This document shows, in pieces, positions 1 to 48,700 of a stretch of DNA of 64,000 nucleotides. Position 1 is the stretch's first letter. Every line of letters starts with the position of its first letter. The notes below the pieces were generated by a model, which searched no databases, had not been told where the DNA came from, and worked only from the letters and a program-made list of their open reading frames with translations. This stretch comes from Amphiscolops sp. MND2022 (taxonomy: Eukaryota): positions 70,558,001 through 70,622,000 of the forward strand of contig OZ076409.1 in the NCBI GenBank assembly GCA_964187785.1, read 5' to 3'. Position numbers and translations under genes: made by a program.

Positions 1-10
1 GCCGTCGGTT

Positions 11-7200: not shown

Positions 7201-7259
7201 TTAATGTTTTCTCCGGATATGGGATTTATTATAAAAGGATTCTCCTCTAACATAAAATT

Positions 7260-7436: not shown

Positions 7437-7489
7437 GAAAATGATAATAAATAACAAGGTATTAAGTTGATTAAATACTCAAAACAAAT

Positions 7490-10593: not shown

Positions 10594-10671
10594 AGGCATG
10601 CCGAGGTATGCCTTTCGACGATCATATAACAACCATGCCCCTGCAAGGTCACTTTTTGCGGTAGCAGCTAG
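10594..10671 (+). other. 3' terminus of the RepHel element: hairpin plus CTAG
   Basis: 9-bp stem with one G-T pair at 10594-10613, CTAG at 10668-10671. Nearly the same sequence as the family C end (24566-24642). Confidence 0.85.
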
Positions 10672-24642: not shown

Positions 24643-26023
24643 GTGGCGGGGGTGCCTCATGCCCCTCAAAAAATCACGAGCGCGGGTAGGGTCCTGCGCG
24701 AGTTCAAGAAGTGAAACATCGATATTTCGAAGCAACACTTTTGGAAGCTATCTTTTTATTGAACCATACGATTTGAACCATTTTTTGCATGTGGCTTTGG
24801 AATCAGGTTATAAGAACTTTTTCCTGCTGACAGTTTAACCGGAAATCATTTGGTGTTGACTTTTGGCCAAAAAACCGGTTATAACGTCGAAAATCAACGT
24901 TATATCCGAATTGTCGTCGTAACTTTTTTCCAGGGCGTCCTAGCGATTTTTGTTGCTCCTACATTGCGTTGCAGCATGTGAAAATACATCTGCTGTGAAA
25001 TTTTGGTTGCAATCGGATCACCCCCCTCCGAGATTGAGGGGTACCCCCCTCCAATTTTACCCCCAAAATTTAGGAAAATGCCAATTTTGAGCATGAAGCT
25101 GTGGATTGAGCGTGTCCGCACCCTGCTGAAGGATTGTCGGGCGCATTAAGGTGAATCCGATGACATGTGTAGTTATCACCCCCAACCCCCCCTGGGACCG
25201 GAAATGACCCTTTTTTGTGTATTTTGACAGGAAGTTGTGGTTTTCAGTCGTAAGACGTTGTTTTATGTTCGCTTTACAGGGTATCAAAGTTGAAACACAG
25301 CATGAGAACAACTTAGTGACCACATTTTGGCCAGTCGGGGGTAACGTAATTACCGGAAATAGGGTCGAAACCCCCCAAAATTGATGTTTTTTGACCATTA
25401 TGACTCGTTTATTGATCACGTATAGGTCCGATAGGTCTCATTAACTATTGTCAAGATGAACAGCTGATCAATTAACGAAGTCTTAACGACGCTTTCAGAA
25501 ACCGGAAGTTACCCCCTCGACCGGAAGTGGTCCATTTTGACCGGAAATGGTGCGAAAAATAGATCAAAAACGTCTTTTTTGTTTAATTTCTGTATACTTC
25601 GTCAGATATTTTTGCATTTTTGAAGGTTGTGGTTGAAAGTAGGATTAAAAGACTGAATCGCTGCAGAATGATGATCACCTTTGTCACCCCCCGATAGCCT
25701 TCCAAGTTGACTTTGGGTCAAGCTTGAAGGCTATCTGTTATGAAAACAAAAAACAAAGCAGAACCCCCTGTCCCCGTGGTTGTTAAATTCTGCTTAGATC
25801 AGTTCAATGCAGAGAGTACTTTGGTTAAGGTAAACAAATAGCGTTACTTGTACGTTTCTTATAGTTGTTCACCCCCACCCGCCAAAATTTCATGCACCTC
25901 CCCCCTCAGTACAACGCCACATAGCGTTCCGACGCCCATAGTCTGTGGGCATGCCGAGGCATGCCCTTCGACGACGTATGCCAAATGAGCTTTTCCCGCA
26001 CTCTGGAGTGCGGTAGCAGCTAG
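24643..26023 (+). mobile_element. Family D unit (1381 bp)
   Basis: Bounded by CTAG|GTG joints, with 5' stem-loop, GATAGCC...GGCTATC hairpin (25693-25735) and 3' hairpin. Related to H. Confidence 0.8.
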
Positions 26024-27327
26024 GTGGCCACGACCATGGTTTCTTGCGTATCTTGTCGAATCTTTTGTCGTTGCCGGCCGGGGAGGGACCCGTTTGCCGG
26101 CGTGTGTAGTGTGGGGCCCCCATACCCAAAAAGTGGTATTTTTTTCAGAGATCTCAAAATCGGCCCGTCAGAATTGCCTGAAATTTGGCATGAGGCTCCC
26201 AATTGGGGAAAAAATAAGAAGTGTAGGAGGCGACTTGTTCGGGTAAATATTGTATGTTGACTTTTGGCCAAAATAGTGTTCCCCCCCAACATGGGCAAAA
26301 TCACATGAGATGTAAAAATATGATCACAACTTTTGAACCTTTGGATTTAGGGGTACGGTCGTGGACCACATTAAGCAAGAGCTTTGGTGAGCGGGTAGGA
26401 TAGATGGGTTTTGATCCCAGTACCTTCAACCACTTTTGAGAAATTAACGTTTCAAACAAACATCCGGGAGGTATATGTTGCCCCTGAAGGCAGGTTTTTC
26501 GCCATTTTCAATGTGAAGGAGTGGGTTTAGCGTAACGTGTGTGGGGTGCTTTTTTGTTGCCCGTGTGCGGAGCGTTCTATAGAGGTGCTGGTTGTTGAAA
26601 TTGGAAAAGCTGCTAAAAAGTTATACCTATACCCCCCCTACTGTCTCGGCAAATCAATTTTTTTTTCAACTTCAGGCCTCCCAAAGGTGAGAAACTTCCA
26701 CACAACTAGTATTGCAAGTGAATGCATGTGGAAATTACTCGGATAGACGAGAAAAATGAGCTATAGAACGACTCTGTAGCTTAATTTGACGTTGACTTAT
26801 GACATTTTGAGTGTGAGCTTGCTATGTGAGAAAAAAATTCAATATTGAAAATCGAAGCTAAGTCTCATCCAAAACTCATCGAAATACGTTCAATCCATCC
26901 CAAAGCGGATTAATTCCAGATATATAGTGCAGCAACACTATTCAAGACCATTTGACACAATTTTACTAGTTTTGACATTGTATTATTCATCCGAGAGCAC
27001 AAAACAGTTGGGTACATTCCATCTCCCTTTCGGGGGAGATGAGAATGTACCCGCTAAATGACACGCACCATGGCCTAATTTTTACCTTTATGCGACGTTT
27101 TCTAGGCTTTCGCGCAAGCCCACTAATATTTACACTGGTTTCTTTCTCTTTCACTCCAAACATTCCGTCCGTACTAACCACCTTACACACCACCAGCAGC
27201 TCAACGACACATCTGCAACGTCAACGCCACATACTCGCATCAACGCCCACCGTCCGTGGGCATGCCGAGGCATGCCCTTCGACGACGTATGCCCGTTGTC
27301 ACAACAGGGCGCCCCTACATTCTCTAG
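26024..27327 (+). mobile_element. Family E unit (1304 bp)
   Basis: Bounded by joints. The 3' ~330 bp are shared with family K unit 44444-45731. Confidence 0.8.
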
Positions 27328-29878
27328 GTGGCCGTGTCTTTTCGACGTGCTTTTGCATTGAGGAGTGGGTAGGGCCCCGCGACGACCTAGAAGAATTGGA
27401 TGCTCACCGAAACGTGCAGAATTCTACGAGATCTCATAGTTTGAGCCATACGATTTTTCTGAAATTTGGCATGTGGCCTGGAATTGGTGAGTAGGTAAAA
27501 CGTGTAGAAGGTAATTTTTCCCAAATTCCACTGTGAGAGGAGATATGGGCAAATAACGGACCCAAAAATGGCAAAAATGCACATTTTTCAACTTTGTCAG
27601 CCAATATCTCTTTTCCAGGTGCCCGTAGCGTTCCGCACGTGGACATCAATATTGCTCAGCGCTGTTGGAGGAGTGCGTGGACAAATTTTGGTTTAAATCG
27701 GACTAAAACTTGACGAGAAATTAACGGTTTTTTGGGCGTTTCCGGGGTAAATTTTTTAACGGTCCAGCTTATCTTTGCCATTTTTTCGAAAATGTACATG
27801 CCTAAAGGCCTCCCCCTGGCCGAATTTACTCCCAGCAAACCCATTTGGCCCTAAATACGGAGTTTCAGCGTTCCAGCATTCCGGGGCGGAAAGTTGTGGG
27901 ACTTGGAAAAATTTCAAAATTTTTTCAAAAATTTTTTTTCCCGTTTTCCGGGCCCCCAATGAAGGGGAACGACCCCCCAACCAGTATTTTGAGTGAATTC
28001 ATGTGGAAAGCCCATGTTTGGAGGAGAAAAATGCCGTTTAGCACATCTTTTTTATCTTAACTTGACATTGACTTATGACGTTTTGAATGTGATGTTAGGA
28101 TATATGAAGCATGTTAAAAGTTGAAGTTTTGAGTCTTTATCTCATCGGAAAACCATTGAGATACAAGCAGTTTTGCTAAAAACGATTTTCATTGTAGGTT
28201 AGCAGAGTATTAGTACACTTTGATGTCATTTGAGTATTTTTTTCTTCTATATAATAACTGTTTTTATGTATTTATTCCAATTTATCTCATCTTTTAACAT
28301 CAAGCAGTTGAGTACATTTCATCTCCCTTTCGGGGGAGATGAGAATGTACTCGCTAAAAACCTAATGCTATGGCGCCAATGTTTGGATGGGAAGTTTTCT
28401 ATGCTTTGAAAAAAGTTATTTTTAATTACTTGATTTTTTAAAACAATAATTAACATGAAGTACATTACTTGCTCCTACTACTACCACCATACATCTCTAA
28501 CGTCAACGCCCCCTGCTTGCATCAACGCCCCATCGTCCGTGGGCATGCCGAGGCATGCCCTTCGACGACGTATGCCAAATGCCCAGTGCCACGCAGTCTT
28601 TCCCCGCTAGGTGGCCGTGTCTTTTCGACGTGCTTTTGCATTGAGGAGTGGGTAGGGCCCCGCGACGACCTAGAAGAATTGGATGCTCACCGAAACGTGC
28701 AGAATTCTACGAGATCTCATAGTTTGAGCCATACGATTTTTCTGAAATTTGGCATGTGGCCTGGAATTGGTGAGTAGGTAAAACGTGTAGGAGGTGATTT
28801 TTCCCAAATTCCACTGTGAGACGAGATATGGGCAAATAACGGTCCCAAAAATGGCAAAAATGCACTTTTTTCAACTTTGTCAGCCCATATCTCGTTCCCA
28901 GGTGCCCGGAGCGGGACGCGTTAAGCTGATTATAAACTCTAGGGTGTTGAGGCTGTACGGGGAAGTCAGGCCCGTTCCGATCGGACTTGTAGTCTTGGAG
29001 AAATAACGGTATTTTTGGGGAACCTTTTCTAACGGTCCAGCTTATCTTTGCCATTTTTTCGAAAATGTACTCGCCTAAAGGCCTCCCCCTGGCCGAATTT
29101 ACTCCCAGCAAAACCATTTGGCCCTAAATACGGAGTTTCAGCGTTCCAGCATTCCCGGGCGAAAAGTTGTGGGACTTGGAAAATTTTCAAAAATTTTCAA
29201 AAATTTTTTTTTCGTTTTCCGGGCCCCCAATGAAGGGGAAACGACCCCCCAACCAGTATTTTGAGTGAATTCATGTGGAAAGCCCTTGTTTTGACGAGAA
29301 AAGTACCGTTTAGAACATCTTTTTATCTTGACTCAACGTTGACTTATGACGTTTTGAATGTGATGTAAGGATGTAGGAGGCATGTGATAAGTTGATGTTT
29401 TGAGTCTTTATCTCATATGAAAGCGGTTGAGATGCAAGCTGTCCTGCTCAAAACGTCTTTCGTTGTAATTTTCTAGTGCACCAATACCCTTTGGTGTCAT
29501 ATAAACATACTTTTCGTCGATATATTAACAATTTTAATGTATTTATTCCAATTTTTATTATCTTTTAACTCAAAACAGTTGAGTACATTTCATCTCCCTT
29601 TCGGGGGAGATGAGAATGTACTCGCTAAAGACCTAGCGCCATGACCAAAAGTTTGAAACCCACGTTTTTTATCTTCTTACAGACTTGTTTTTGTATTTTT
29701 TCGGAATTTTTTAAAAATTAATATACTTGAAATACATTACTTGACTTTACTACTACAATCCACCTCCAACGTCAACGCCCCCTTGCTTGCATCAACGCCC
29801 ACCGTCCGTGGGCATGCCGAGGCATGCCCTTCGACGACGTATGCCAAATGCCCAGTGCCACGCAGTCATTATCGCTAG
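27328..29878 (+). mobile_element. Two family F units (1283 and 1268 bp; joint at 28610/28611)
   Basis: Both start GTGGCCGTGTCTTTTCGACG. The second is nearly identical to 49676-50943. Confidence 0.85.
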
Positions 29879-32454
29879 GTGCCGGGATTTCTATTCGATA
29901 AAGTATGTGGCGCGCCTTGGGTAGGGTCCCTTGCGCGCTTTTGGGTATGGTGTTCACCAGCTAGGAAATAGGGGTCGATTTTTCGGGATCTCCTAAACTA
30001 GCCACACGATTTGGCTGAAATTTGGCACACGTACTCCCCTCGGCACGGTGAAGATGATTTCCTACTGACGTTTTTCCCGCAAAATTTTTTTTGTTGTCCA
30101 AAATAACGGTTTTTGGGGTAAAATTTTGAATTTTTTTTAAATTTCATCTTATATCTCGCCACCGGTTTACGCTAGCGCTTCAAAACCCTGCTAAAGAAAG
30201 CTTGCAAACTGTCTCAGGAATGCGGTGTGAAATTTTCAGCTCAATCGGACTTAAACTCGGGGAGATATAGCGTTTTTCCGGAGCGGGGGGGTTTCATTTT
30301 TCTAACGGTCCAGCTTATCTTAGCCATTTTTTCGAAAATGTACTCGCCTAAAGACCTCCCCTGGCCGGTTTTATTCCCAGCAAAACCATTTGGCCCTAAA
30401 TACGGAGTTTCAGCGTTCCAGCATTCCCGGGCGAAAAGTTGTGGGACTTAGAAAATTTCAAAAATTTTCAAAAAATTTTTTTTCCGTTTTCCGCCCTCCC
30501 CCCCGAGGGGAAAAGACCCCCCAACCAGTAATTTGAGTGAATTCATGTGGAAAGGCCATGTTTAGAGGAGAAAAATCCCGTTTAAATCGTCTTTTTATCT
30601 TTATTCAACGTTGACTTATGACGTTTTGAAGGTGATGTTTGGAAGGTGTGAAGCACGTGAAAAGTAAACGTTATGAGTATTTATCTGATCTGAAAGCCAT
30701 TGAGATGCAATCTGTTTTGCTCAAAACGTAATTCATATCCGTTTGGTAGTCAATCAACACCCTTTGTTGTCATTTGACATCTTTTTTTGTTGATATAAGA
30801 AAAAATTTTGTGTATTTATTCATTTTTTTCTCATCAAATAACTTGAAACAGTTGAGTACATTCCATCCCCCCTTCACGGGGGAGATGAGAATGTACTCGC
30901 AAAAAGCCCCAAACTACGGCCCTTACCTTCCTGAGCTACGCAGTATAAAGATTGCATATTGGTTCCGACATTTTGATAGAGTTATATCTTGGTAATCTGT
31001 CTGGGTATGCAGAAAAACCAGCACGTGCTTTTTTATACCAAGTTGCTCACAACGACATTTATTTTATATCAACGCCCCCATATTTATCAACGCCCACCGT
31101 CCGTGGGCATGCCGAGGCATGCCCTTCGACGACGTATACCAAGATATGTTCGAGCGCGTTAGCCTAGGTGCCGGGATTTCTATTCGATAAAGTATGTGGC
31201 GCGCCTTGGGTAGGGTCCCTTGCGCGCTCTTGGGTATGGTGTTCACCAGCTAGGAAATAGGGGTCGATTTTTCGGGATCTCCTAAACTAGCCACACGATT
31301 TGGCTGAAATTTGGCACACGTACTCCCCTCGGCATGGTGAAGATGATTTCCTACTAGCGTTTTGCTCGCAAAATTTTTTTTGTTGTCCAAAATAACGGTT
31401 TTTGGGGTAAAATTTTGAACTTTTTTTAAATTTCATCTTATATCTCCCCACGGGTTTACGCTAGCGCTTCAAAACCCTGCTAAAGAAAGCTTGCAAACTG
31501 TCTCAGGAATGCGGTGTGAAATTTTCAGCTCAATCGGACTTGAACTCAGGGAGATATAGCGTTTTTCCGGAGCGGGGGGGTTTCATTTTTCTAACGGTCC
31601 AGCTTATCTTTGCCATTTTTTCAAAAATGCACTCGCCTAAAGGCCTCCCCTGGCCGGTTTTATTCCCAGCAAAACCATTTGGCCCTAAATACGGAGTTTC
31701 AGCGTTCCAGCATTCCCGGGCGAAAAGTTGTGGGACTTAGAAAATTTCAAAAATTTTCAAAAAATTTTTTTTCCGTTATTTGGGCCCCCAAAGTGGGGGA
31801 AAAGACCCCCCAACCAGTAAAGCAAGTGAATGCATGTGCAAAGCCCTTGTTTAGAGGAGAAAAATGCCGTTTAGAACGTCTTTTTATCTTGGCTCAACGT
31901 TGACTTATGACGTTTTGAAGGTGATGTTTGGAGGTGTAAAGCACGTGAATAGTAAACGTTATGAGTATTTATCTGATCTGAAAGCCATTGAGATGCAATA
32001 TGGTTTGCTCAAAACGTAATTCATGGCAGTTTGGCAATCAATCAACACCCTTTGTTGTCGTTTGACATACTTTTTTGTTGTTATAATAAAAAATTTTGTG
32101 TATTTATTCATTTTTTTCTCATCAAATAACTTGAAACAGTTGAGTACATTCCATCCCCCCTTCCGGGGGAGATGAGAATGTACTCGCAAAAAGCACCGAA
32201 CTACGGCCCTTACCTTCCCGAGCTACGCAGTATAAGGATTACATATTGGTTCCGACATTTTCATAGAGTTAAATCTTGGTAATCTGTCTGGATATGCAGA
32301 AAAATCAGCACGTGCCTTTTAATACCAAATTGCTTACAACGACAATTATTTTTTATCAACGCCCCCATATTTATCAACGCCCCCCGTCCGTGGGCATGCC
32401 GAGGCATGCCCTTCGACGACGTATACCAAGATATGCGTTAACGCGTTAGCCTAG
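29879..32454 (+). mobile_element. Two family B units (1289 and 1287 bp; joint at 31167/31168)
   Basis: Align end to end with 10672-11960. Confidence 0.87.
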
Positions 32455-34518
32455 GTGGTCACGAGTATACTCTACCAGAATATTTGCGAGGTGGGGGAGG
32501 GGCCCCGAGTCCGAGCCTCCTGTCAGATATCTATCTAGAGTGAGGGGTCCAGAAAAACAGCGATTTTGGAATTGAGCCATACGATTTGAATGAAACTTTG
32601 TGTGTAGGTAGATCTCAAAATTATAAGAACTTTTTCCCCCTGGCAAAACATGGTTGGAACATTGTGTCGGAAATTATGAACAAATGATCGGTTTTTTCAC
32701 CTATTTTCGGCATATTTACACCTCGGTACAACCAGCCTGTGGATACAATTGGCTGAAACTTTGCATGCGAGGCATAAATGAAGAAAAGTGTTTGCATGTC
32801 AAAAATCATTAGGCTGCTGATACTAGGCTGGGAGATAAAAGTGGAAATATAAACGGAAAATTGTGAAAAACCCGGTCATTGCGTCATAACTTCCGAACTT
32901 TTGTATTGATTGTGTTTACTTCAGCGGTAGCAGTACTTTGGAGGTACTTTCATCATCATGTGGTCAGGATAAAAAATAAAAAATAAAAAAGTTCTTCAAA
33001 AGTTCTACAAAATTCTAAAATTCAAGAATTTTTAAAAAAAAAAGATTTTCTCATTTTTCGATGCTTTTTCACATTTTGAGCACGAAAATGACGTAGCCCT
33101 GCACTTACGATCACTACTTGAAGGATTTTCACATACCTCTTCCTCAATGTGTGGCCACTTTACAGAACTAATTGTTCTTTTGTTAGAAGTCCCGCCGTTG
33201 TTTGCGGAAAAAAGTTCGAGAAACAAATTATCCGTTGTTCCTGAGAAATGCGAAGCAGTTCGCAGGAACAACGGATAGAATTAACAAAGTACCCGGGTGG
33301 TTGGAATGAGAGATATGTAATCATCTGATAACTGATGAAAAACAGAGTTTTTCATCAGTTGAAAAGACGAAAAACGTTTCCATGGATGTTACCTAAAGTA
33401 AACAGTACTAGTAACATGTTGTAAAATATAGTTCCACGGAAGCCACCCACCCATTCTGGTAATTAGTTTCCTTGCCTCCACTGGGTGGTCACGGGTATAC
33501 CCTACCACAATATTTGCGAGGTGGGGGAGGGGCCCCGAGTCCGAGCCGTGCTGTCAGATTTCTATCTAGGCTGGAAGGGCCATAAAAACAGCGATTTTGG
33601 AATTGAGCCATACGATTTGAATGAAATTTTGTGTGTGGGTAGATTTTAAAATTATAAGAACTTTTTCTCCCTGGCAAAACATGGTTGCAACACTGTGTTG
33701 GAAGTTATGAACAAATGATCGGTTTTTTCACCTATTTTCGGCATATTTACACCTCGGTACAACCAGCCTGTGGATACAACTGGCTGAAACTTTGCATGCG
33801 AGGCATAAATGAAGTGAAGTGTTTGCATGTCAAAAATCATTAGGCTGGTGACACTAGGCTGAGAGATAGAAGTGGAAAAATAAGTGGAAAATTGTGAATT
33901 CTCCGGTCATTGCGTCATAACTTCCGAACTTTTGTATTGATGATGTTTCCTTCAGCGGTAGCAGTACTTTGGAGATGGTTTCATCATCACGTAGTGAGGA
34001 TAAAAAATAAAAAATAAAAAAGTTCTTCAAAAGTTCTACAAAAATTCTAAAATTTAAGAATTTTTCAAAAAAAAAAGATTTTCTCATTTTTCGATGCTTT
34101 TTCACATTTTGAGCACGAAAATGACGTAGCCCTGCACTTACGATCACTATTTGAAGGATTTTCACATACCTCTTCCTCAATGTGTGGCCACTGTACAGAA
34201 CTAATTGTTCTTTTGTTAGAAGTCCCGCCATTGTTTGCGGAAAAAGGTTCAAGAAACAACTTCTCCGTTGTTCCTGAGAAATGCGAAGCAGTTCGCAGGA
34301 ACAACGGATAGAAATAACGAAGTACCCGGGTGGTTGGAATGAGAGATATGTAATCAGTCGTTAAACTGATGAAAAACAGAGTTTTTCATCAGTTGAAAAG
34401 ACGAAAAACGTTTCCATGGATGTCACTCAAAGTGAACAGTACTGGAAGCGTATTTTAAAATTTAATTCGACAGAAGCCGCCCGCCCACTCTGGTAATTAG
34501 TTTCCTTGCCTCCACTGG
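32455..34518 (+). mobile_element. Two family G units (1030 and 1034 bp; CTGG ends; joint at 33484/33485)
   Basis: Both start GTGGTCACG and end CCTCCACTGG. They lack the GGGCATGCC hairpin but carry a perfect 14-bp stem (33330-33360). Confidence 0.82.
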
Positions 34519-35915
34519 GTGGTCGGGTATTTTTTTTTTACTCGTATATGACGTTTGCGAGGCTTTGGGGAGGGCCCCGTGCCGAGCCTGTACCGAAATT
34601 GGCCACATGTAGAAATCTGGCACTAAAATGCGAGATCTCAAAAAGTAGCCGTTAGAAATTTCTGAAAATTTGCATGTGGCTCTGAATCAATGAGTAATGA
34701 AAAAGTGTAGAAGTGACCACCTCTGAAAAAATGGTCCTTGTTGCACTTTTTGCGCAATTTCTGTCGCATTGTTGCGTTTTTTATGTCATTTTCGAATTTG
34801 GAGGCAAAAAACTCATAGATGCTTTATTCCTAGCGTACCAAGTGTGGAGCATGAAAAGTTGCAGCATCTTCAATAACGTATGCTGAGAAAATTTGGTTGC
34901 CCTGTGGTTACCCCCCACAGAGATAGAGGGGTGCTTCCGGTTACTTTTGACCCGCTAAATTTGGGAAACTGCTAATTTTCGTAAAGAAGCCGTAGATTTA
35001 GCGTGTCCACACCCTGCTGAAGTATTGTTAGGCATTTTAAGATAGATCCGATTACATGCGTTCAGTTCACCCCCCATCACCCCCTGGACCAGAAATGAAT
35101 ATTTTTGTGTACTTTAAGACCGGAAGTCTCCATTTTCACCGGTAAGGAGTCCTTGTACGAGCAACTAGCAAGACATCAAAATTGAAGGAAAACCTGGGGT
35201 CAACTTAGTGACCACGTGTTGTCCAGTCATGGGTTCCGCTAAGACCGGAAATAGGGTCAAAACCCCCCTTTTGGTCGTTTTTTTATCAGTTTGACCAGAG
35301 TTTTTTCCACGTTCAAGTCGCAATGCACATCAAACAGTGTGAACATAAACTACATATTTATTGAGTAGACGTACCTGACACTGCCATATACCGGAAGTAA
35401 CCCCCCTGACCGGAAGTTGTCAATTTTGACCAGAAATGGTCCAAAAAGTAGCGATAAATCAGTTTCTCACTGGTTTTTAAGGTCAAGTTTTTACTTTTTT
35501 TCTTTCTTATTGTTTTTTTTTCCTACTGAAAAATATACTTTGTAGCTTGTTTGGCTAAAGTTCTGGAAAGGGATCACCTTTATCACCCCCGATAGCCTTC
35601 CAAGTTGACCTTGGGTCAATCTTGAAGGCTATCAGTTCAGAAAACGAAAAATTGTGGAAATTGGGTTTCTCCTTTTTGTTGTAATTTTTTCCATAAAGTC
35701 AATATGTTAAATAAAGCTTTTGTTCACCTGAGTGATCTGAAACTTGTCCAGAGGTGTCACACACACGAATACCATTTCAAGTTGAAGTAAACATATGAGG
35801 GTAGTATTAGACAACATCACACACAATTACCAACGCCCACCGTCCGTGGGCATGCCGAGGCATGCCCTTCGACGACGTATGCCAAATAGCGCCACAGGGC
35901 GCCCCTATTTGCTAG
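34519..35915 (+). mobile_element. Family H unit (1397 bp), diverged relative of D
   Basis: Shares GCGTGTCC(A/G)CACCCTGCTGAAG and GATCACCTTT(A/G)TCACCCCC..GATAGCCTTCCAAGTTGAC blocks with D. Standard 3' hairpin + CTAG. Confidence 0.8.
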
Positions 35916-38900
35916 GTGGTCAGTGCTGTTGCGTTCATTTTTTTCCGGCCGTGGGGGAGGGCCCCTCTGAGGCCGGTCATTTTTCAGGTAACAGCTTTCT
36001 TATACAAAAAAGCGGGAAAAAACCTCAGTGCTCAAATCCCAACCGTCAGAATGAGCTGAAATTTGGCATGTAGCTAGTACATTGCAAATGATTAGGATGG
36101 GTTATAACGCTATGTTTGGCAAAATTGGTTTTGTTGCATTTTTTTTGTCATATAGGGCCAAAAATGGCCTTTTTTGCGTATTTTTTGCTTGACTAGCTAA
36201 TAACTCGCGTTGGGTTGGTACTAGCGATACGGGTGTGGGGTATGGAATTGAAAGATTACCAAGTACCTTGCTGATGACGTTATTTGATTTCCGCTCACAT
36301 CACCGCCCACGCCGGAAATGCCCAATTTGTCACTTCCGGTCGCAATTTTTGACTTTTTTGGATGGAGTTAAAACCCATTTCCGGTGTGAAGGAGTGGGTT
36401 GAGCGCTTCGACCCCAATATACTAAAAGTAGGTTTAGACAAAGTCCTATTAGGAAAAAAGTAATGTAAGCCCGTACCTATCACCCCCTCACCGGAAATAG
36501 GGGTCACGCCTCCTTTTTCTGTGTTGCAAAAGTGACATGTGCACATTTGTCCAACTCCGAAGCCCCGGAGCACCGTGGGACCCTTATACTTTCTAAACAC
36601 CTATCCCACACGCTACCGGAAGTGACCGGAAGTTTCACCGGAAATGACATCCTTGGACCGGAAATGGTCAAAAAATGACTTTTCAATGCAAAATAGACAC
36701 ATTTGGTGCGATTTTTAGGCAAAAAGCATAGTTCGTGAAACGCTTGTTGCAGTTGGAAGGGCCATTGTTCAGCAAGAATGCGTACAGCATTACGTAGCAC
36801 ATCAAGTAGTTGATACTTTTTCGTCCATAATATCCTTAGGACCGGAAATGGCCATTTTTGAATCGGAAACTTCTTCAGCTTGATTTTTAACAGGTTTTTC
36901 CGCAATATTAGCGTAGGAATTGCTCGTCGGATGCTGTAGGTCTATTTTAAAACTAGCTAACTGCTTCTTAGAAATGTATTTCAGATTTCAGAAGTCCCAA
37001 CCAATTCCAGAATACCGGAAATAAGAGTAATTGCCTCCTTTATGACCTTTGAATAATAAATTGTTAAAATCCGCATATTATTTTTTTCCACACTTGTTGC
37101 TGAGATTATATCTAAGCAATAACATGTGCTTGTCATGAAGTGCTGTAATGTGGGAGTTACGAATATTGCTATTTAAGAGTATTACATACGTGAATATCCG
37201 CCGTAATAAAGATTTTTTAAAACAACCACTTTTGAAGTCCTATAGATTGTCCGCACACCCGAAACAATTCAAGTTTCTAGTTTCGATTTTAAGGCTTCCG
37301 CGACTATTTAGTTGAGATGATAGTTTTCACGTTCTCTGCAAAACGTGCATTTCATTGTGTTTTTGACATTTATTGGGCTGTTTCACATTGTAATTCAAAA
37401 CTAATTGATCATACAATTTGGAACAATTGAAAATTTTCAATTGAACATTAAATGTTTTAATAGTTTCTCTTTCGTTGAAGATACTATTTTGTGGCCATTA
37501 GAACAGGTTGAATTAGTTGAATAAGTAGCCAGTGCGATACATCGTTTAATACATAGCGTTTGACATCGGTTTTTTTGCGAACAAAGACAAGCATGATTTG
37601 TTGAAAGTTTTTACCATATCGCTTCAAATGGGGTGTGACAAACAAGGAATTTCTCGTTTTATGTGCTACTCCGAAAGCAACCTGAAAACGCAAATCGATC
37701 TATTGAATTATCGAGATGAAACTAAGCATTTCAAGTCTGGATTTCAATTTAATTCTATCACTCCGGTCTATTTTTATGTCGCAAGAGTGATAAAGCGTGT
37801 TAGCAAGGTTAAACACATCGAACAATTTTAATAATAAAGCCTCCGGAAAGGGAAGAAAAAATGAGTTTTCCTGTCAAAACTATGATAACCACGTACGAAA
37901 CATCAAGTTTTTGTATTGTTCAATAGTCCAAAACGTGAATGAAGTTTTTAAATATCCAAGCGTTTCTAATCAAGCATGCGTTTCAAATGTCTGACAGGGC
38001 AGCATCGTTCTCAAAAAACATTGCTTTCAATGTGGTTTGATACCAGCAAAACGAACGTAGGCACAACCAGATTCTCAAATTTCTTGCAAAACAGCCGATT
38101 TCTTTGAAAATCCTAATTGATTTCACAGGGTATATGGTGAAACCCTGTTGGATTCCAAAAATGAAAAGCTGATTTCTTGGGTTTGCGAGATAAAAGACAA
38201 CGGGAATCTGAAAGCAAGTCATCTCAATAAAATACCTGTTGCTCTTTAAACAAATGGACTTTAGTAGTCGAAATTTTTTCTCAGACACTTTCGATCAGAG
38301 AATGTTTGAGTCCTAACGTTCGAATCAGGTTGGTTTCAGGTGGCTCGAAGTGCCAGCTGAACCAACCTTTCAAATAAAGAAAAACCCCACATCTCCCTTC
38401 ATGCCACGCTACCCCGTATAGCGTTTCAACTTGACAGAAGTTGGAACGTTTGATTTTGGCGTCGCTTGGGATTGACACACCAGTGTTGATACTAAATTTG
38501 GCAAAGAGAAATCGCAGAAATGATTGTTTCTTTTTTTCCCTTTGATTTAGTCTGTCGAGCGTACAAAGCAGTTTGGGAAACTAACTTGCATTTCCACTGA
38601 ACGAAAAAAAGTAGTAGCCTTGCAAACTCCTGGAAGAAATTGAATCAGGTTTTCCTATTTGTGAGATCAGCTGTCACTCAATTATCAATTACTTTTTTAA
38701 AAATTTTTAGGAACAACTAACCTAACTCTGCTCGACTCTCTTGAATAATGCAACAATCGTTTACTGATCTGTACTCGTGAGAAAAAAATCAACTGCAGGT
38801 CCAAAAACAATCTATATATCTTTGGTTTATTCCGTGCAAAGCTTTTTTTCACACCATGTGACTCAACTATAACATGTATGTAATGAAACCAATAACACCT

Positions 38901-41900
38901 TCAACTATCAACGCCCACCGTCCGTAGGCATGCCGAGGCATGCCTTTCGACGACGCGCGCCGGAAACAATCTAACGGCGCCACCCGCTTCTGGGTGGTCA
39001 GTGCTGTTGCGTTCATTTTTTTCCGGCCGTGGGGGAGGGCCCCTCTGAGGCCGGTCATTTTTCAGGTAACAGCTTTCTTATACAAAAAAGCGGGAAAAAA
39101 CCTCAGTGCTCAAATCCCAACCGTCAGAATGAGCTGAAATTTGGCATGTAGCTAGTGCATTGCAAATGATTAGGATGGGTTATAACGCTATGTTTGGCAA
39201 AATTGGTTTTGTTGCATTTTTTTTGTCATATAGGGCCAAAAATGGCCTTTTTTGCGTATTTTTTGCTTGACTAGCTAATAACTCGCGTTGGGTTGGTACT
39301 AGCGATACGGGTGTGGGGTATGGAATTGAAAGATTACCAAGTACCTTGCTGATGACGTTATTTGATTTCCGCTCACATCACCCCCCACGCCGGAAATGCC
39401 CAATTTGTCACTTCCGGTCGCAATTTTTGACTTTTTTGGATGGAGTTAAAACCCATTTCCGGTGTGAAGGAGTGGGTTGAGCGCTTCGACCCCAATATAC
39501 TAAAAGTAGGTTTAGACAAAGTCCTATTAGGAAAAAAGTAATGTAAGCCCGTACCTATCACCCCCTCACCGGAAATAGGGGTCACGCCTCCTTTTTCTGT
39601 GTTGCAAAAGTGACATGTGCACATTTGTCCAACTCCGAAGCCCCGGAGCACCGTGGGACCCTTATACTTTCTAAACACCTATCCCACACGCTACCGGAAG
39701 TGACCGGAAGTTTCACCGGAAATGACATCCTTGGACCGGAAATGGTCAAAAAATGACTTTTCAATGCAAAATAGACACATTTGGTGCGATTTTTAGGCAA
39801 AAAGCATAGTTCGTGAAACGCTTGTTGCAGTTGGAAGGGCCATTGTTCAGCATGAATGCGTACAGCATTACGTAGCACATCAAGTAGTTGATACTTTTTC
39901 GTCCATAATATCCTTAGGACCGGAAATGGCCATTTTTGAATCGGAAACTTCTTCAGCTTGATTTTTAACAGGTTTTTCCGCAATGTTAGCGTAGGAATTG
40001 CTCGTCGGATGCTGTAGGTCTATTTTAAAACTAGCTAACTGCTTCTTAGAAATGTATTTCAGAAGTCCCAACCAATTCCAGAATACCGGAAATAAGAGTA
40101 ATTGCCTCCTTTATGACCTTTGAATAATAAGTTGTTAAAATCCGCATATTATTTTTTTCCACACTTGTTGCTGAGATTATATCTAAGCAATAACATGTGC
40201 TTGTCATGAAGTCCTGTAATGTGGGAGTTACGAATATTGCTATTTAAGAGTATTACATACGTGAATATCCGCCGTAATAAAGATTTTTTAAAACAACCAC
40301 TTTTGAAGTCCTATAGATTGTCCGCACACCCGAAACAATTCAAGTTTCTAGTTTCGATTTTAAGGCTTCCGCGACTATTTAGTTGAGATGATAGTTTTCA
40401 CGTTCTCTGCAAAACGTGCATTTCATTGTGTTTTTGACATTTATTGGGCTGTTTCACATTGTAATTCAAAACTAATTGATCATACAATTTGGAACAATTG
40501 AAAATTTTCAATTGAACATTAAATGTTTTAATAGTTTCTCTTTCGTTGAAGATACTATTTTGTGGCCATTAGAACAGGTTGAATTAGTTGAATAAGTAGC
40601 CAGTGCGATACATCGTTTAATACATAGCGTTTGACATCGGTTTTTTTGCGAACAAAGACAAGCATGATTTGTTGAAAGTTTTTACCATATCGCTTCAAAT
40701 CGGGTGTGACAAACAAGGAATTTCTCGTTTTATGTGCTACTCCGAAAGCAACCTGAAAACGCAAATCGATCTATTGAATTATCGAGATGAAACTAAGCAT
40801 TTCAAGTCTGGATTTCAATTTAATTCTATCACTCCGGTCTATTTTTATGTCGCAAGAGTGATAAAGCGTGTTAGCAAGGTTAAACACATCGAACAATTTT
40901 AATAATAAAGCCTCCGGAAAGGGAAGAAAAAATGAGTTTTCCTGTCAAAACTATGATAACCACGTACGAAACATCAAGTTTTTGTATTGTTCAATAGTCC
41001 AAAACGTGAATGAAGTTTTTAAATATCCAAGCGTTTCTAATCAAGCATGCGTTTCAAATGTCTGACAGGGCAGCATCGTTCTCAAAAAACATTGCTTTCA
41101 ATGTGGTTTGATACCAGCAAAACGAACGTAGGCACAGCCAGATTCTCAAATTTCTTGCAAAACAGCCGATTTCTTTGAAAATCCTAATTGATTTCACAGG
41201 GTATATGGTGAAACCCTGTTGGATTCCAAAAATGAAAAGCTGATTTCTTGGGTTTGCGAGATAAAAGACAACGGGAATCTGAAAGCAAGTCATCTCAATA
41301 AAATACCTGTTGCTCTTTAAACAAATGGACTTTAGTAGTCGAAATTTTTTCTCAGACACTTTCGATCAGAGAATGTTTGAGTCCTAACGTTCGAATCAGG
41401 TTGGTTTCAGGTGGCTCGAAGTGCCAGCTGAACCAACCTTTCAAATAAAGAAAAACCCCACATCTCCCTTCATGCCACGCTACCCCGTATAGCGTTTCAA
41501 CTTGACAGAAGTTGGAACGTTTGATTTTGGCGTCGCTTGGGATTGACACACCAGTGTTGATACTAAATTTGGCAAAGAGAAATCGCAGAAATGATTGTTT
41601 CTTTTTTTTCCCTTTGATTTAGTCTGTCGAGCGTACAAAGCAGTTTGGGAAACTAACTTGCATTTCCACTGAACGAAAAAAAGTAGTAGCCTTGCAAACT
41701 CCTGGAAGAAATTGAATCAGGTTTTCCTATTTGTGAGATCAGCTGTCACTCAATTATCAATTACTTTTTTAAAAATTTTTAGGAACAACTAACCTAACTC
41801 TGCTCGACTCTCTTGAATAATGCAACAATCGTTTACTGATCTGTACTCGTGAGAAAAAAATCAACTGCAGGTCCAAAAACAATCTATATATCTTTGGTTT

Positions 41901-42065
41901 ATTCCGTGCAAAGCTTTTTTTCACACCATGTGACTCAACTATAACATGTATGTAATGAAACCAATAACACCTTCAACTATCAACGCCCACCGTCCGTAGG
42001 CATGCCGAGGCATGCCTTTCGACGACGCGCGCCGGAAACAATCTAACGGCGCCACCCGCTTCTGG
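35916..42065 (+). mobile_element. Two near-identical family I units (3078 and 3072 bp; CTGG ends; joint at 38993/38994)
   Basis: Direct repeat with very few differences (e.g. a 7-nt ATTTCAG duplication near 36978-36991 in copy 1 only). A-T variant of the 3' hairpin. Confidence 0.88.
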
Positions 42066-44443
42066 GTGGTCGGGGCGCTCTCCCAACCTCTTCCGCCGCC
42101 TCGGGGAGGGTCCTGATTGGCGGCACCCCTTATGGAAAACTTACTGTTAGAAACGCACCAGTGTAATGCTGATTTCGAAAACCACCCGTATGATTTTGCT
42201 CAAATTTTGCATGTAGCTCCCAAATTCCAATACAAGAACTAATTCCTACTGCCATTTTTCCGGGAAAACTCAAAAAATTGGTCAAAAATGACATTTTCTG
42301 AGTGAAAAATGGCCATTTTTTGACTTTTTTATTTTTGATCGGCTATAACTTTTTCCAGGGTGCTCGGATCGAAAAAAGTTTGTATAGGTAAAGTTGTTTG
42401 GCACTTCGAGTAGAACTCGTAGACAACTTTTGGTTGAGATCGGATGAAAATTGACTGAGAAATAACCGAAAAACCATCGATTTTTTGAAAAAAAATTTGA
42501 CACACTAGTATGACTCTGCCGTTTTTTGGCCAAAGTTCTTTCTAGAACCTCGTCTAAAGTCCTCCCCTGGCTGAATTACCTCCCAGCAAAACCATTTGGC
42601 CCATTTGCCGAAGTTTCAGCGTTCCAGCATTCCCCGGGTAAAAGATAAATGACTTAGAATTTTTACAAAAAATTTTCAAAAAAAAATTTTTTCTTCAAGC
42701 TTCCCAAAGTCAAGGAACTTCCACACAACTAGTATTGCAAGTGAATGCATGTGGAAAGTGCTTGAATAGACGAGAAAAATGAGCTATAGAACGACTCTGT
42801 AGCTTAACCTGACGTTGACTTATGACAATTTGAGTGCGTGCTTGCTATGTGGTGAAATTGAGAAACAACCTAAAATGAAAGCTAAGTCTGATCTAAAACT
42901 TACCGAATTGCTTTTATTCAGCCCCAAAGCTGTTCAATTGCCCTATGTAGTGCAGCAACACTATCCAAGGCTTTTTAGGACGTTTTTAAGATGTCATTAT
43001 GTTCTTTTTGGACAGTTTTTTTTTGTACAAATAGGACTTTATTTTTCGGGACCTAACACTTTTTGCCAAAAAAGTCAAACTTCGTCCACACAACTTAGAT
43101 TGCAAGTGAATGCATGCGGAGAGTGCATGAAGTGATGAGGAAAATGAGCTATAGAACGCCCGTTTCCGCCAACTTGACATGGACTTATAAGAGTTTGAAA
43201 AATCACAAAAAAAATGAACAACAATTCACTAACAGTGAGTTTGTAGTAAATGGCCCATATTTCCATACACAAGATTCTCAGCACAATTCTATACCTTTTC
43301 GTTTTTGTTGTCCGTGATTGTGCAACAAATAAGTATTGGTAAAAGTTTCTGTAAAACATCGCCGGAAAGAGAAAAATGCGGAGTTTATGAGTAATTTTGT
43401 TTGAAAAATGACAAAATAGTCTATCTCTGCCGTTTCAGCACAAATTTTTTAAAAAAAGACGCCCAGTAGGTAACCCATGGGCTAATTTCGTCTCAACAAA
43501 ACGGTTGGGGTCATTTGTCGCAGTTTTAGCTTTATAGCATTCTCCGGGTAAAAGTTGTTGAACTTAGAAAATTTTTGAAATTTTTTCAAATTTTTTTTTT
43601 AACTTCAGGCGGCCCAAAGTCAAGAAACTTCCACACAACTAGGATTGCAAGTAGATGCATGTGGAAAGCCCAGTAATTGGGGAGAAAAATGCCGTTTAGA
43701 ACGTCTCTTTATCGTAACTTGATGTTGACTTATGATTCTTTAAATGGGAGCTTGATTTGAGGTTAAGAAGTCAAAGTGTGTAAATGGAACGTAAGTCTGG
43801 TCAAAAACTCATTGAAATACATGCAATGAACCTCAACTTATCCTCAATTACAGTTGTCTAGTGCAAAGGTCTTTCAAAGTTGTTTCACTTCTTTTGATAA
43901 GTGTTGATGGTATAAACCATCAGTTATAGAGAAACACGTAAGTACATTCTCATCTCTCCCCATCGGGGGAGATGAGAATGTACTCACCAAAGGTCAAAAC
44001 TACTAAATGCCTTTTTTCTGTACAATTTTATGTCACTGTCGAAACAAACATAAACAAATTAGTTTCCGACTCCTCCTTGGGGTTTTGGTTTGACTTCTGT
44101 AAAAAAAAGGGGTACGAGGACTTGGAGATCTTTTAAGTGTTCCAAAAGAGACCTCCTATTTCACACCGTGGAAAACTTGAAGACATTTGTCATGAAATCA
44201 CCTACTAGGCTTCTCTCTGAGTACGCAAGTTCAATAAGTAACACATTTTATCTTCCATATTTGCTCCGATGACCAGGATTGGAAACTAAATTAACCCAAG
44301 GTACTTAGCCAAAACGAGCAATACCAACTTTTGATTGAAAACCTCATCACAGTTTTTCTTTGAAAATTACCTTCATTGACTTCTCAATTTATCAACTCAA
44401 CCTCCTTAAGCGGCCCTATTTTGACACAAGCCTGCAGCGCTAG
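42066..44443 (+). mobile_element. Family J unit (2378 bp) with internal duplications and an atypical 3' end
   Basis: Bounded by CTGG|GTG and CTAG|GTG. The CCACACAACT...TTGCAAGT block occurs at 42721, ~43087 and 43631. No GGGCATGCC hairpin. Confidence 0.75.
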
Positions 44444-45731
44444 GTGGCCGGAAATTTTTTTTTTCATCAAAATCTTTGCCATTGGGGGAGGGGCCCCGGA
44501 TGGCCAGTAGTACGGGATAGCTTCCTACCAAATCCAGATGGAAAAAACGTGATTTCGGAAACTAGCCGTCAGAATTTGCTCAAATTTTGCATACGGCTTC
44601 CTATGACAATCCTAAGAACTAATCCCTACTGGCATTTTGCCCAAAAAACGCAAAAAGTTGGTCAAAATCTTAGTTTTTTGGTCAAAAAATGGCAATTTTT
44701 CGAAAAAATTTTTTTTCAGAGACAATTACTCGTAACTGGTTCACCCAGCGCAAAAACGCCTAGCTGATTTATTTTTGGGCACTTCATGAGGAGTGCGTAT
44801 ACAAATTTTCGTCCAGATCGGAAAAAAATTCACTAAGTATTAGCCGGAATTCGGACGCATTTTTTCGCAAATTTTTGAAAACCTAGTCTATCTCTGCCGT
44901 TTTTTGCCCAGATTTTTTTCCAGGTCCTCTCCTAAAGGCCTCCCCTGGCCGGTTTACTTCCCAGAAAAACCATTTGGCCCTAAATACGGAGTTTCAGCGT
45001 TCTAGCATTCCCGGGCGAAAAGATGTGGGACTTAGAAAAAATTCAAAATTTTTCAAAAATTTTTTTTTTCGTTTTCCGGCCCCCCAATGAAGGGGAACGA
45101 CCCCCCAACGAGGATTTTTGGTGAATTCACGTGGAAAGGCCTTGTTTTGTGGATCAAATTGCCGTTTAGAGCGACTTTTTATCTTAACTTGACGTTGACC
45201 TCTGTCGTTTTGAATTTGATATTAGTATGTGTTGAGCATGTGAAAAGTTGATGATTTCAGTTGTTCTCTCGTGTTCAAGCCATTAAGATACAAGCGGTAG
45301 TGATCAAAATGTGATTTATCGCAATTTGGTGGTGCTTTTGGTGTATTTTGATTCTTTTAAATAAAAAGTTGTTCTTTATATATTTGGTGTATTGATTCAA
45401 ATGAACAAGAAACAGTTGAGTACATTTCATCTCCCCCCTTGTGGGGGAGATGAGGATGTACCCGCTAAATGACACGCACAATGGGCCAATTTTACTTTTA
45501 TGCGACGTTTCCTAGGCTTTTGCGCAAGCCCACTACTATTTAGACTGGTTTCCTTTTCTTTTACTCCAAAATTTTCCGTACTAACCACCTTACGCACCAC
45601 CAGCTCATCGTAACATCTGTAACGTCAACGCCACATACTCGCATCAACTCCCACCGTCCGTGGGCATGCCGAGGCATGCCCTTCGACGACGTATGCCAAA
45701 TAGCGCCACAGGGCGCCCACTCTTTCGCTAG
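44444..45731 (+). mobile_element. Family K unit (1288 bp)
   Basis: Starts GTGGCCGGAAATTTTTT like 62811. Middle is B/F-like, 3' part is E-like. Confidence 0.82.
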
Positions 45732-48700
45732 GTGCGGGGGGGTAACCCCAACAAAAATTTTGGAGGATTCGGGTAGGGTCCTGAATCCGATTTTAACTCT
45801 AATAGCTATCGATAGGAAATCTTGCAAAAATTTCGGGATCTCGTGATCTAACCATAGGATTTTAAAGTTGGAGCGGCCCCCACCAGATTTTCCGAAAATT
45901 AGCGCCCCCCACCGGGTTCCATACCCCGGAAAATTTTTTTCTGGCCACACGGGCGACCGTTAGGGGGTCATTTTAGGGGTAAAATTCATATTGGGCCACA
46001 TAACTTTTTTTCTGTTGATTTAAAACTTTGGAACCCTGCTAAAAGTTTCTTGACCGTGTTGCAGGGGCCCCGAAGGTCCAAACCAAATTTTTCTATCTTG
46101 AAGCTATCTCCAAGTACCCCCCCGCTCAAACCGTTATTTTTCCGGAAACGCAGGTTTTTGACCCGGAAGGAGTCGTCTGAGCGCGGGGTCGTTAGGTGAT
46201 GTATTGGGGACGGCCTTGAGACGAAGTGGGGGACAAGTAGTTTGCCAACCTCAATTTACCCCCCGGACGGGAAATGACCGTTATATGAGCGGCAAAAATG
46301 TCCCCCTCCACGTTTTACCGCTATTTCCGGTGTGAAGGAATGGGAGTAGCGCGTCGGGTGCCATATATCAAAAGTAGGTTTAGACAAGGATCTATCGGAA
46401 ACATGTGGTTTGGGACCCCCTGGACCAACCCGTTAGCAGGAAATGGGGCTTCCGGCCCGTTTTTTTACGGTTAAAAACGGAAAATGGGCATTGAGGGGTA
46501 AATATCTCGTGAACGCGTGGAGCTACGGTGTCCTTCACTACTTCAAGGTTTCATACCCATGATATGGTGCCTTCAGGGGGGCAAACAGATTTCCGCTATC
46601 TATCACCGTTACGGACTTGGCCCCCCAGCCTAACCGTTAAGTGACCGGAAATGTCATATTTTGAGCCCAAAGGGTCGGTCCCAGCCAGGGAACGTTAGGT
46701 AACTTATTGTAGTACTCATTGAGACGAGTTGGGGGACATAGTTTCAGTCACCCCCCGTTACCCCCTTGGGACCGGAAATGACCGTTATGTGAGTAAATTT
46801 GCCATTTTTGTCCTATTTGAAGGGCATTTAGATGCGGAAGGAGTGGTAATAGGTGCTTGGACACTATATGAGGTAAGGGAGGACGTGAGGCGAGCATTCG
46901 GACATAACCGTTATGTTGACCCTAAAGTCCCCCTGGTACCGTAAACGACCGGAAATGGTCAAATTTTGTGTCTATTGGGTACAAATGTTTGGTATTTCGT
47001 AAATAAAAGTATCTATTAGGTGTTTCGACGGTTTGCAGTAGTGAACATAGTCATGAAACCTTGTGGGGGGTAACGGTATATAGCACCGGAAATCCAAACC
47101 GTTGGAGACAGGATAGGTTTTTTGGTTTTAAAATGTCTTTCGGCGTACTTTTGTCGACTATTATGGACTATTTTTAAAAAATAAAGTTTTTCCATATAGT
47201 TTCAGAGACTCCGAAACCTCAACCAACATAACCGTTACCTTATGATAGCCTTTCAAGTTGGCCTGGTGTCAACTTGGAAGGGCTATCCTTCAAAAATCGT
47301 TAATCAAGTGTGTTTTTGGGTATGTTTGTATCATTTTAGAATCAATTAGAGCTTCAAGAAAAGTTTGCCAACGACAAAAACTATGTCGTGATGATTCCGT
47401 TATTAGAATGATGGTTAACAAAATGTTGATACAGTTGATTTTTTACATTTCAAATGTGTCCTAAAAGCCAAAAAACCTCTTTACCAAAAAAATGGTATTG
47501 ATTGAATTGTATATAACAGGTAATAAAAGTTCAAATTGATTATTACGTTTCATTATTCAAGCTAAAACTTCATAACATAGTTTAACTAACGTCAACGCCA
47601 CACACTTTACATCAACGCCCACCGTCTGTGGGCATGCCGAGGCATGCCCTTCGACGACGTATGACAAATCCATATCAAACGACGCCCGTACATCCCGGGC
47701 TAGGTGCGGGGGGGAAACCCCAACAAAATTTTTGGAGGATTCGGGTAGGGTCCTGAATCCGAGTTCAGTGCTGCCAGCTTTCGTTAAGAAAATTTGGATA
47801 GGATTCGGGATCTCGTGATCTAACCATAGGATTTTAAAGTTGGAGCGGCCCCCACCAGATTTTCCGAAAATTAGCGCCCCCCACCGGGTTCCATACCCCG
47901 GAAAATTTTTTTCTGGCCACACGGGCGACCGTTAGGGGGTCATTTTAGGGGTAAAATTCATATTGGGCCACATAACTTTTTTTCTGTTGATTTAAAACTT
48001 TGGGACCCTGCTAAAAGTTTCTTGACCGTGTTGCAGGGGCCCCGGAGGTCCAAACCAAATTTTTCTATCTTGAAGCTATCTCCAAGTACCCCCCCGCCCA
48101 AAACGTTATTTTTCCGGAAACGCATGTTTTTGACCCGGAAGGAGTCGTCGGAGCGCGGGGTCGTTAGGTGATGTATTGGGGACGGCCTTGAGACGAAGCG
48201 GGGGACATGCAGTTTGCCGACCTCGGTTTACCCCTCGGACAGGAAATGACCGTTATATGAGCGGGAAAAATGCCCCCCTCCACGTTTTACCGCTATTTCC
48301 GGTGTGAAGGAGTGGGAGTAGCGCGTCGGGTGCCATATATCAAAAGTAGGTTTAAACAAGGACCTATCGGAAACATGTGGTTTGGGACCCCCTGGACCAA
48401 CCCGTTAGCGGGAAATGGGGCTTCCGCCTCCTTTTTTTACGGTTAAAAACGGAAAATGGGCATTGAGGGGTAAATATCTCGTGAACGCGTGGAGCAATCG
48501 TGTCCATCACTACTACAAGGTTTCATACCCATGATATGGTGCCTTCAGGGGGGCAAACAGATTTCCGCTATCTATCACCGTTACGGACTTGGCCCCCCAG
48601 CCTAACCGCTATGTGACCGGAAATGTCACTTTTTGAGCCCAAAGGGTCGGTCCCAGCCGGGGAACCTTAGGTAACTTATTGTAGCACTCAATGAGGCGAG

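Follow-up and report, generated by a model that had tools for sequence, protein, structure and literature searches.

A one-way array of eleven Helitron-like unit families joined at one exact junction, downstream of a predicted RepHel-GIY-YIG gene in Amphiscolops sp. MND2022

In Helraiser, a member of the Helitron-like element (HLE) group HLE1, the left end is essential and the right end is not (PMC4778049); its circular forms join tail to head exactly, and this joint is cut on the + strand (PMC5876387). In parallel, a pair of adjacent, unlike Helitrons in maize was interpreted as insertion beside a resident copy (Du et al. 2008, PMC2267711), and occasional self-insertion was described for the Helitrons of Fusarium (PMC5148889). 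The motif 2 signature (V/I)ExQxRG(S/L)(P/L)HxH is given for Helitrons and Helentrons (PMC4067079), and reversed open reading frames (ORFs) occur in Helitron2 (PMC3627910). HELIANO, whose definitions of the end criteria of HLE1 and HLE2 (Helentron/Helitron2) we use throughout, reported one moss HLE2 family with a captured GIY-YIG and, in 19 genomes that include those of sponges and polychaetes, elements left unclassified (PMC11417382). Here we describe a window of 64,000 nucleotides, meaning the whole stretch that was analysed, from Amphiscolops sp. MND2022 (assembly GCA_964187785.1, contig OZ076409.1, positions 70,558,001 to 70,622,000 of the forward strand), in which a gene for a predicted RepHel transposase is followed downstream by a one-way, head-to-tail array, 53 kb long, of 30 non-coding units belonging to 11 families. 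By its enzyme, as predicted from the sequence, this array system is one of the Helitron-like elements in the broad sense, given that the RepHel of the window has the HUH motif, two catalytic tyrosines and a Pif1 helicase.

Once the array is divided at its joints, the units measure 1.0-3.1 kb (the family letters are our own labels, and F and F2, 85% alike, are counted as one family), with no nested, interrupted or inverted unit and no spacer or repeat tract between units anywhere within it. All 30 joints, from 10668 to 62814 on the + strand, read CT-R-GGTG-S, with column counts of C 30, T 30, A 26/G 4, G 30, G 30, T 30, G 30 and C 16/G 14, and the word CTRGGTGS has 31 matches on both strands of the window, 30 of them on the + strand, against 4.36 expected. 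These joints comprise 21 distinct ordered family-to-family types, every one base-exact. A 5' motif, GG(T/G)(A)GGG..CC, lies 41-60 nt downstream of the joint in 30/30 heads, as part of a loosely conserved head module of about 200 bp that is common to all families, and a conserved hairpin lies 44-59 nt upstream of the joint in 27/30, missing in both G units and in J. Head motif and hairpin are independent markers that confirm the 30 joints; the composite pattern has 29 matches against 0.03 expected, missing unit C because of a one-base variant. Outside the window, the sole match of the hairpin pattern in metagenome_contigs is a contig of 1,172 bases, L001, whose joint CGAG/GTGC has the same hairpin 53 nt before it and the same head motif 43 nt after it, in a body 66-82% like the window units. 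This outside joint also has GGTG, so that over 31 joints (30 in the window plus L001) the invariant bases are C.RGGTG and GGTG is found in 31/31. The hairpin pattern was found in no viral or prokaryote contigs, and the head pattern in no viral contigs. An assembly artefact was rejected because the exact joints are of 21 types and L001 is built in the same way, and joints concealed within the long units C, I and J were likewise rejected, there being no additional head motif or hairpin in them. The length of units C (22220-23419) and J (42569-43809) is due to internal duplications, 83% alike over 700 bp and 73% over 332 bp, respectively. Tandem Repeats Finder (period limit 500) reported nothing relevant in the window.

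The initial annotation had placed the strand exchange within GGTG by means of two linkages, and both of them hold across the 30 joints. The CTAG words at 32451 and 35912 and the CTGG words at 33481, 34515, 38990 and 42062 are where it had put them, each with GTG after it. The base R tracks the upstream unit, with CTGG at 4/4 joints after G or I tails and CTAG at 26/26 joints after other tails, and G heads and I heads are each found after both CTAG- and CTGG-type tails. This left bound stands on two contrasts only, B to G against G to G and H to I against I to I; there are 8 differences in 3,079 columns between the I copies and 75 in 1,034 between the G copies, and given that an R belonging to the downstream unit would need differences at that very base in both pairs, it would take a coincidence of about 2 in 10,000. 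The base after GTG tracks the downstream unit (C for A and B, G for the rest), this right bound being fixed by 8 of the 17 different-family joints. With R linked upstream and S linked downstream, the exchange falls at one of the five bonds from R to S; the proposed interval is therefore borne out, except that, strictly, two of its five bonds are the outer borders of GGTG. Whichever of the five bonds is cut, the 5' end is not TC on either strand, in agreement with the proposal that the units do not start like canonical Helitrons, and an AT or T^T insertion site is absent from the joint interval of the window joints. Each joint has one GGTG, and A-F-A compared with A-A shows no base gained or lost; the claimed absence of a target-site duplication thus holds for 30/30 joints within the array. 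Because GGTG is common to donor and target, it hides the exact position of the crossover, and it marks the stretch left undivided by this analysis.

The identity of their copies bears on how single units came to lie between different neighbours. Identity reaches 96.5% or more in 8 of the 86 same-family pairs, and 5 of these 8 are non-adjacent (4 independent), namely the B units starting at 10672 and 29879, the F units at 28611 and 49676, the A units at 17884 and 47704, and the A units at 13932 or 15909 and 58865. Identity between twin units begins and ends exactly at the joint, and none of the 8 twin pairs has twin neighbours on either side or forms a two-unit twin block; unit F, for example, is found between F2 and B and again between two A units. 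A crossover in the shared hairpin block was rejected, because tails travel with the upstream body. A satellite-like array made by unequal crossing-over and gene conversion alone could draw on the A copies, which are mosaics, and on the hairpin block, which supplies 50-85 bp of common homology; but homologous recombination cannot create new, exact joints from unrelated tails and heads with only about 7 bases in common, and nowhere do neighbours exchange tails at the hairpin block. With its 21 joint types the array largely refutes this explanation, which we regard as scarcely credible. A second possibility is that the new joints are made at circle closure, with replication beginning at the head of one unit and read-through of one or more tails giving a multi-unit circle that is inserted as a concatemer. 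Both end bypass and arrays of tandem Helitrons have been described (PMC4778049, PMC5876387), and the adjacent twins, one I-I pair 99.5% identical and two A-A pairs 98.8-98.9% identical, are what it would produce; we nevertheless hold it to be improbable, given that the 8 twin pairs include no two-unit twin block, that A-F-A would take two successive events, and that an origin of the first mixed neighbours would still be needed.

We consider it probable, all this being weighed, that the array grows because RepHel places every new copy at a tail-head junction already present in it, with circles that carry a tail-head junction integrating there, probably at CTRG^GTG. By analogy with Helraiser, RepHel would nick the + strand at the unit start and peel the unit off, and then, by the same analogy, cut again after CTRG and close a circle with a CTRG/GTG joint. 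It would next nick the circle joint and the resident joint at the same bond and swap the strands; with GGTG shared by donor and target, nothing would be duplicated or lost, and two usable joints would be left per insertion. Local tandem duplication and recombination between A copies act on top of this junction insertion. All of the enzymatic steps are inferred; the window itself displays the joints, the head module, the hairpin, the adjacent enzyme gene and the single units between different neighbours. The head is the likely recognition site, since all units have it and since other units follow G and J, which are without the hairpin block; heads in 30/30 units against hairpins in 27/30 also fit the essential left end and the dispensable right end of Helraiser.

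As regards the nick itself, a cut at CTRG^GTG, the canonical position, falls inside GGTG and is the one we lean towards, because it retains the CTRR end and parallels the CCAA end word of the Paramecium Helitrons, which matches their target repeat. We would give CTRGG^TG a limited chance, a nick elsewhere or on the minus strand a smaller one, and GGTG^ the smallest of all. The CGAG end of L001, the usual 5' T of Helitrons and a minus-strand layout leave these other nick positions open; a minus-strand layout remains conceivable for the array units in view of the reversed ORFs of Helitron2.

The initial annotation had gone further and attributed cleavage to the tetranucleotide itself, as reminiscent of IS91 or IS200/IS605; as a model, GGTG would then define both cleavage and target. 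This has in its favour the invariance of GGTG in 31/31 joints while the T of CTRG varies (CGAG in L001), and also the case of IS91, whose end tetranucleotide CTCG resembles its targets CTTG/GTTC (PMC13181058). In the array, however, GGTG occurs 220 times on the + strand and 185 times on the - strand, and 375/405 are not used as joints; this, together with the fact that no unit is nested or inverted, means that GGTG cannot be the whole target and that the signal must be much larger. Even C.RGGTG occurs 39 times on the + strand and 7 times on the - strand of the array, of which the joints are 30, leaving 9 further + copies inside units unused. Nor did the window ORF match any IS91-type or Y1 transposase family at E 0.1. 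In IS200/IS605, guide bases pair with the cleavage site. In the window, tail-to-next-head pairing has no excess complementarity over the control; pairing across the joint is possible for the tails of G and I and not for most others, and a four-base guide is below the detection of this test. As an account of both cleavage and target we therefore judge the tetranucleotide very unlikely, although as cut chemistry alone, with the nick after GGTG, it is possible. What stands of the proposed likeness is the HUH chemistry and the IS91-like logic by which the end resembles the target, and what does not stand is the kind of enzyme, a Helitron-type RepHel. IS91 shares with the window two-tyrosine HUH chemistry, the lack of duplication and an end word similar to the target word, and it has the joined-end circles that are predicted here (PMC13181058). 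Its terminal tetranucleotide beside the nick may correspond in the window joints to CTRG^ or GGTG^. It differs in having no helicase, whereas the window RepHel has one fused, and in using a four-base target at many sites, whereas four bases are insufficient here. The IS200/IS605 elements differ in their Y1 transposase, against two tyrosines and about 2,200 aa here.

A remaining explanation is that the elements target one host site, such as a repeat, a satellite or a telomere-like tract, carry a copy of it at their ends and rebuild the site on insertion, the specificity then being for host sequence and not for an origin of the element itself. In its favour are the telomere-capping Helitrons of Paramecium, which have a CCAA end and whose insertions into telomeric CCCCAA repeats all have one orientation (PMC13085455), and the predicted POT1/RPA-like fold of the cargo ORF would also suit it. 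These Helitrons resemble the present system in a divergent RepHel clade, strict orientation and an end that resembles the target, and they differ, as compared by description, in their use of host telomeric repeats and a CCAA end, while the window joints hold no repeat tract; GIY-YIG is not mentioned in the accessible text and 7 supplements of that paper. We think a host site of this kind rather unlikely for the array, because its units have no spacer or repeat tract between them, and because the invariant core is only C.RGGTG, of which the 9 additional + copies inside units are left unused.

Several points weigh against the insertion of each copy at a resident junction. Same-family neighbours are in excess, 13 observed against 5.7 expected, and the A copies are mosaics; taken together, these two facts indicate that tandem duplication and recombination also shape the array. 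The 64-kb window holds neither array boundary, and no solitary copy or empty host site was seen in it, whilst only a single outside joint, that of L001, was found. That this RepHel would move the array units rests solely on the common 3' end and on adjacency, with the 5' end of the coding element lying outside the window. Among the terminal blocks, conservation is highest in the 3' hairpin; an IS91-like layout would make this hairpin the origin, and the transferred strand may therefore be the minus strand. The CGAG end of L001 weakens CTRG as the recognised word.

Side by side with these points we record some features of the units and their ends. One A copy, u06 (19857-21851, compared with 47704-52928), has a 5' end like u22 and a 3' half like u24, as if recombination between such A copies had looped out the intervening F unit. 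In window positions 21852-44443, unrelated neighbours have first bases in common: C and D share GTGGCG (10 bases alike), E, F2 and F share GTGGCC, and G, G, H, I, I and J share GTGGTC, with a permutation P of about 0.05 overall and of 0.006 for the GTGGTC run, which was chosen after being seen. These common first bases may be due to a target choice assisted by homology or to ancestry as a block. The signal for neighbours with similar heads is thus weak (P 0.05), and for neighbours with similar tails there is none (P 0.58). Families with unrelated bodies have short 3' tail modules in common, as seen in the tails of E, H and K (27327, 35915, 45731) and of the coding element, A, C and D, which means that tails were swapped at some time. 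The tails of G (32455-34518) and J (42066-44443), without the 3' hairpin block, fold no better than shuffles, and G has internal palindromes of its own near unit positions 775-823 and 876-906; the G and J units may be end-bypass products with new 3' ends. A small palindrome in the G head, at 32464-32473 and 33494-33503, differs on both sides between the two copies (GAGTATACTC vs GGGTATACCC), and these two-sided changes in the sequence suggest a 5' hairpin under selection. Units H and I hold numerous ACCGGAAGT/ACCGGAAAT words (36300-37030, and in other units), which we take to resemble an ETS-factor site. The hairpin folds with z of -2.8 to -3.9 in K, H and I and of only -1.3 in the coding element and L001; its outer pair is G-C or A-T depending on the family. 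Rfam gave no match at the gathering score.

Compared with HLE1 and Helraiser, the likenesses of the array system are the RepHel layout, the nearest solved fold (7lcc), a CTRR-like 3' end after a hairpin, and the lack of target duplication. If the cut follows CTRG, the 3' CTRR is found as CTRG at 30/30 window joints, with CGAG in L001, and exact head-to-tail joints are known in HLE1 too. The differences are that the window units have no TC 5' end; that the conserved hairpin lies 44-59 nt from the 3' end (absent in 3/30) instead of 10-15, with only variable small stems nearer to that end; that 11 families are stacked here at one joint, as against insertion at A^T; and that the RepHel has a C-terminal GIY-YIG and lacks RG(S/L)(P/L) in 41/41, so that the full motif 2 signature is matched by 0/41 family members, 35/41 fitting a GN-type variant. 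The adjacent unlike Helitrons of maize are similar in their exact joints from CTAG to the next element, but those of maize, bat and plants are a single pair or same-family concatemers with TC starts, whereas here 30/30 units of 11 families are so joined. With HLE2 the system shares a nuclease fused behind the helicase, an aromatic-x-R before motif 2, an OB-fold accessory gene and small hairpins near many 5' ends. It differs from HLE2 in its nuclease, GIY-YIG and not AP endonuclease, in the absence of DUF6570 from 20/20 proteins scanned, and in units without short asymmetric terminal inverted repeats or a T^T target. Between head and tail of the same unit, the longest inverted match is 5.7 on average, against 5.4 in unrelated pairs, the best being 9 (G) and 8 (I) against a control maximum of 8. 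The unclassified elements of HELIANO may include the RepHel-GIY-YIG lineage. Nothing closer is described in the accessible text of PMC10288648, PMC13286980, PMC6431247, PMC11934779 and PMC8788227, and the literature searched, which took in few subscription papers, holds no description of the ends of the RepHel-GIY-YIG clade or of mixed-family, self-targeted Helitron arrays.

Judged from its sequence, the upstream enzyme belongs to a little-described lineage of divergent Helitron RepHel proteins that carry a GIY-YIG nuclease at the C terminus. The window ORF scores 35.5 bits with Pfam Helitron_like_N (cut-off 28.9) and 36.8 with PIF1 (cut-off 25.9). The Rep model, with a predicted local distance difference test (pLDDT) score of 82, is closest to Helraiser 7lcc (Foldseek E 6.8e-6; Z 15.1, root-mean-square deviation (rmsd) 5.4, 308 aligned), the next having Z 7.5, at an identity to Helraiser of 13-14%. 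A phmmer search with the whole RepHel protein did not have Helraiser among its matches at E 0.01, and a profile search recovers it at E 1.3e-12, with the helicase as the best stretch. Both histidines and the first tyrosine are invariant in 41/41 aligned relatives, and the second tyrosine is kept in 90% or more. The predicted intron between helicase and GIY-YIG domain agrees with intron-less relatives, which align across the joint without a gap, and with the sister proteins P0006, P0007 and P0009-P0012, which end at the same residue. The family profile of the GIY-YIG domain matches SLX1 structures at E 5e-10, and this domain, which we would guess resolves branched intermediates, is carried by 15/19 sampled long relatives, chosen from 150 listed; no AP endonuclease or DUF6570 was found in these 19 or in the window ORF. 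Through the old duplication downstream, the GIY-YIG exon and the first part of the OB-fold gene are present in additional, degenerate form. The product of the OB-fold gene, the 436-aa ORF, has Atlas matches to POT1/CTC1/RPA-type proteins at 0.90-0.92, and its model (pLDDT 69) is best matched to MCM10 (Z 9.3, rmsd 2.8, 111 aligned), then to Teb1, CST and RPA.

Five sister RepHel proteins, 99.5-99.9% identical, together with one short fragment, and copies on several contigs, indicate recent activity. The lineage comprises 473 clusters at 50% identity, and the RepHel alignment search found no related locus in viral or prokaryote contigs. The divergent RepHel families P0001/P0012/P0200 and P0022/P0024 have longest contigs of equal size (387,958 and 1,394,692, respectively), a hint, from equal sizes only, that several coding RepHel families cluster on one contig. 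The coordinates of all these features are collected in Table 1.

Table 1. Coordinates of the coding element, the array and selected units, joints and terminal motifs in the 64,000-nt window.
Feature	Position	Strand	Remarks
RepHel transposase ORF (HUH and two-tyrosine Rep, Pif1 helicase), predicted	2..6007	+	2,001-aa open frame; 5' end lies before the window
Predicted 67-nt GT-AG intron, helicase to GIY-YIG domain	6004..6070	+	removal leaves an open frame
GIY-YIG (SLX1-like) endonuclease exon, predicted	6071..6602	+	Pfam GIY-YIG E 2.3e-4, 21.8 bits, just below the 22.6 cut-off
Old duplication, 6237-7265 resembling 7496-8531	6237..8531	+	blastn 68% over 1,061 columns
436-aa ORF, predicted OB-fold single-stranded-DNA-binding protein	8187..9497	+	14 homologues
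3' end of coding element	10588..10671	+	same hairpin block as units, ending CTAG
Array of 30 non-coding units	10672..64000	+	order B A A A A A C D E F2 F B B G G H I I J K A A F A A A A A A K; last K cut by window end
Joint, B to G	32451..32458	+	CTAG/GTGG
Unit G copy 1	32455..33484	+	3' hairpin block absent; ends CTGG
Example of 5' motif GG(T/G)(A)GGG..CC	32494..32505	+	part of common head module
Unit G copy 2	33485..34518	+	75 substitutions vs copy 1; ends CTGG
Unit H	34519..35915	+	body 69% like D; ends CTAG
Example of 3' hairpin core	35849..35866	+	also 32393, 38927, 41999
Unit I copy 1	35916..38993	+	ends CTGG
Unit I copy 2	38994..42065	+	99.5% identical to I copy 1; ends CTGG
Joint, I to J	42062..42069	+	CTGG/GTGG

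In summary, the locus represents an under-described Helitron lineage with GTG-type starts, which stacks many families at one exact joint. Tentatively, the RepHel-GIY-YIG lineage may even be a third kind of Helitron having its own tail-head junction as its only target, that is, an integron-like eukaryotic landing pad for kilobase cassettes of many families, base-exact and in one orientation, in which a single-strand exchange would rebuild the site each time. Target choice and joining by the Helitron transposase are the least understood step of rolling-circle transposition, and given that one defined sequence of about 100-200 bp appears here to serve as both donor and target, this target step becomes directly testable. 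Within the literature searched, this is a first look at the ends and the insertion habit of a widespread RepHel-GIY-YIG lineage, which would escape scanners based on TC/CTRR ends and on inverted repeats. If the self-targeting is true, it explains how mixed-family, satellite-like blocks arise without harm to genes, and it would make this enzyme a candidate site-specific integrase that works without double-strand breaks, as part of a site-specific DNA-inserting system in a eukaryote.

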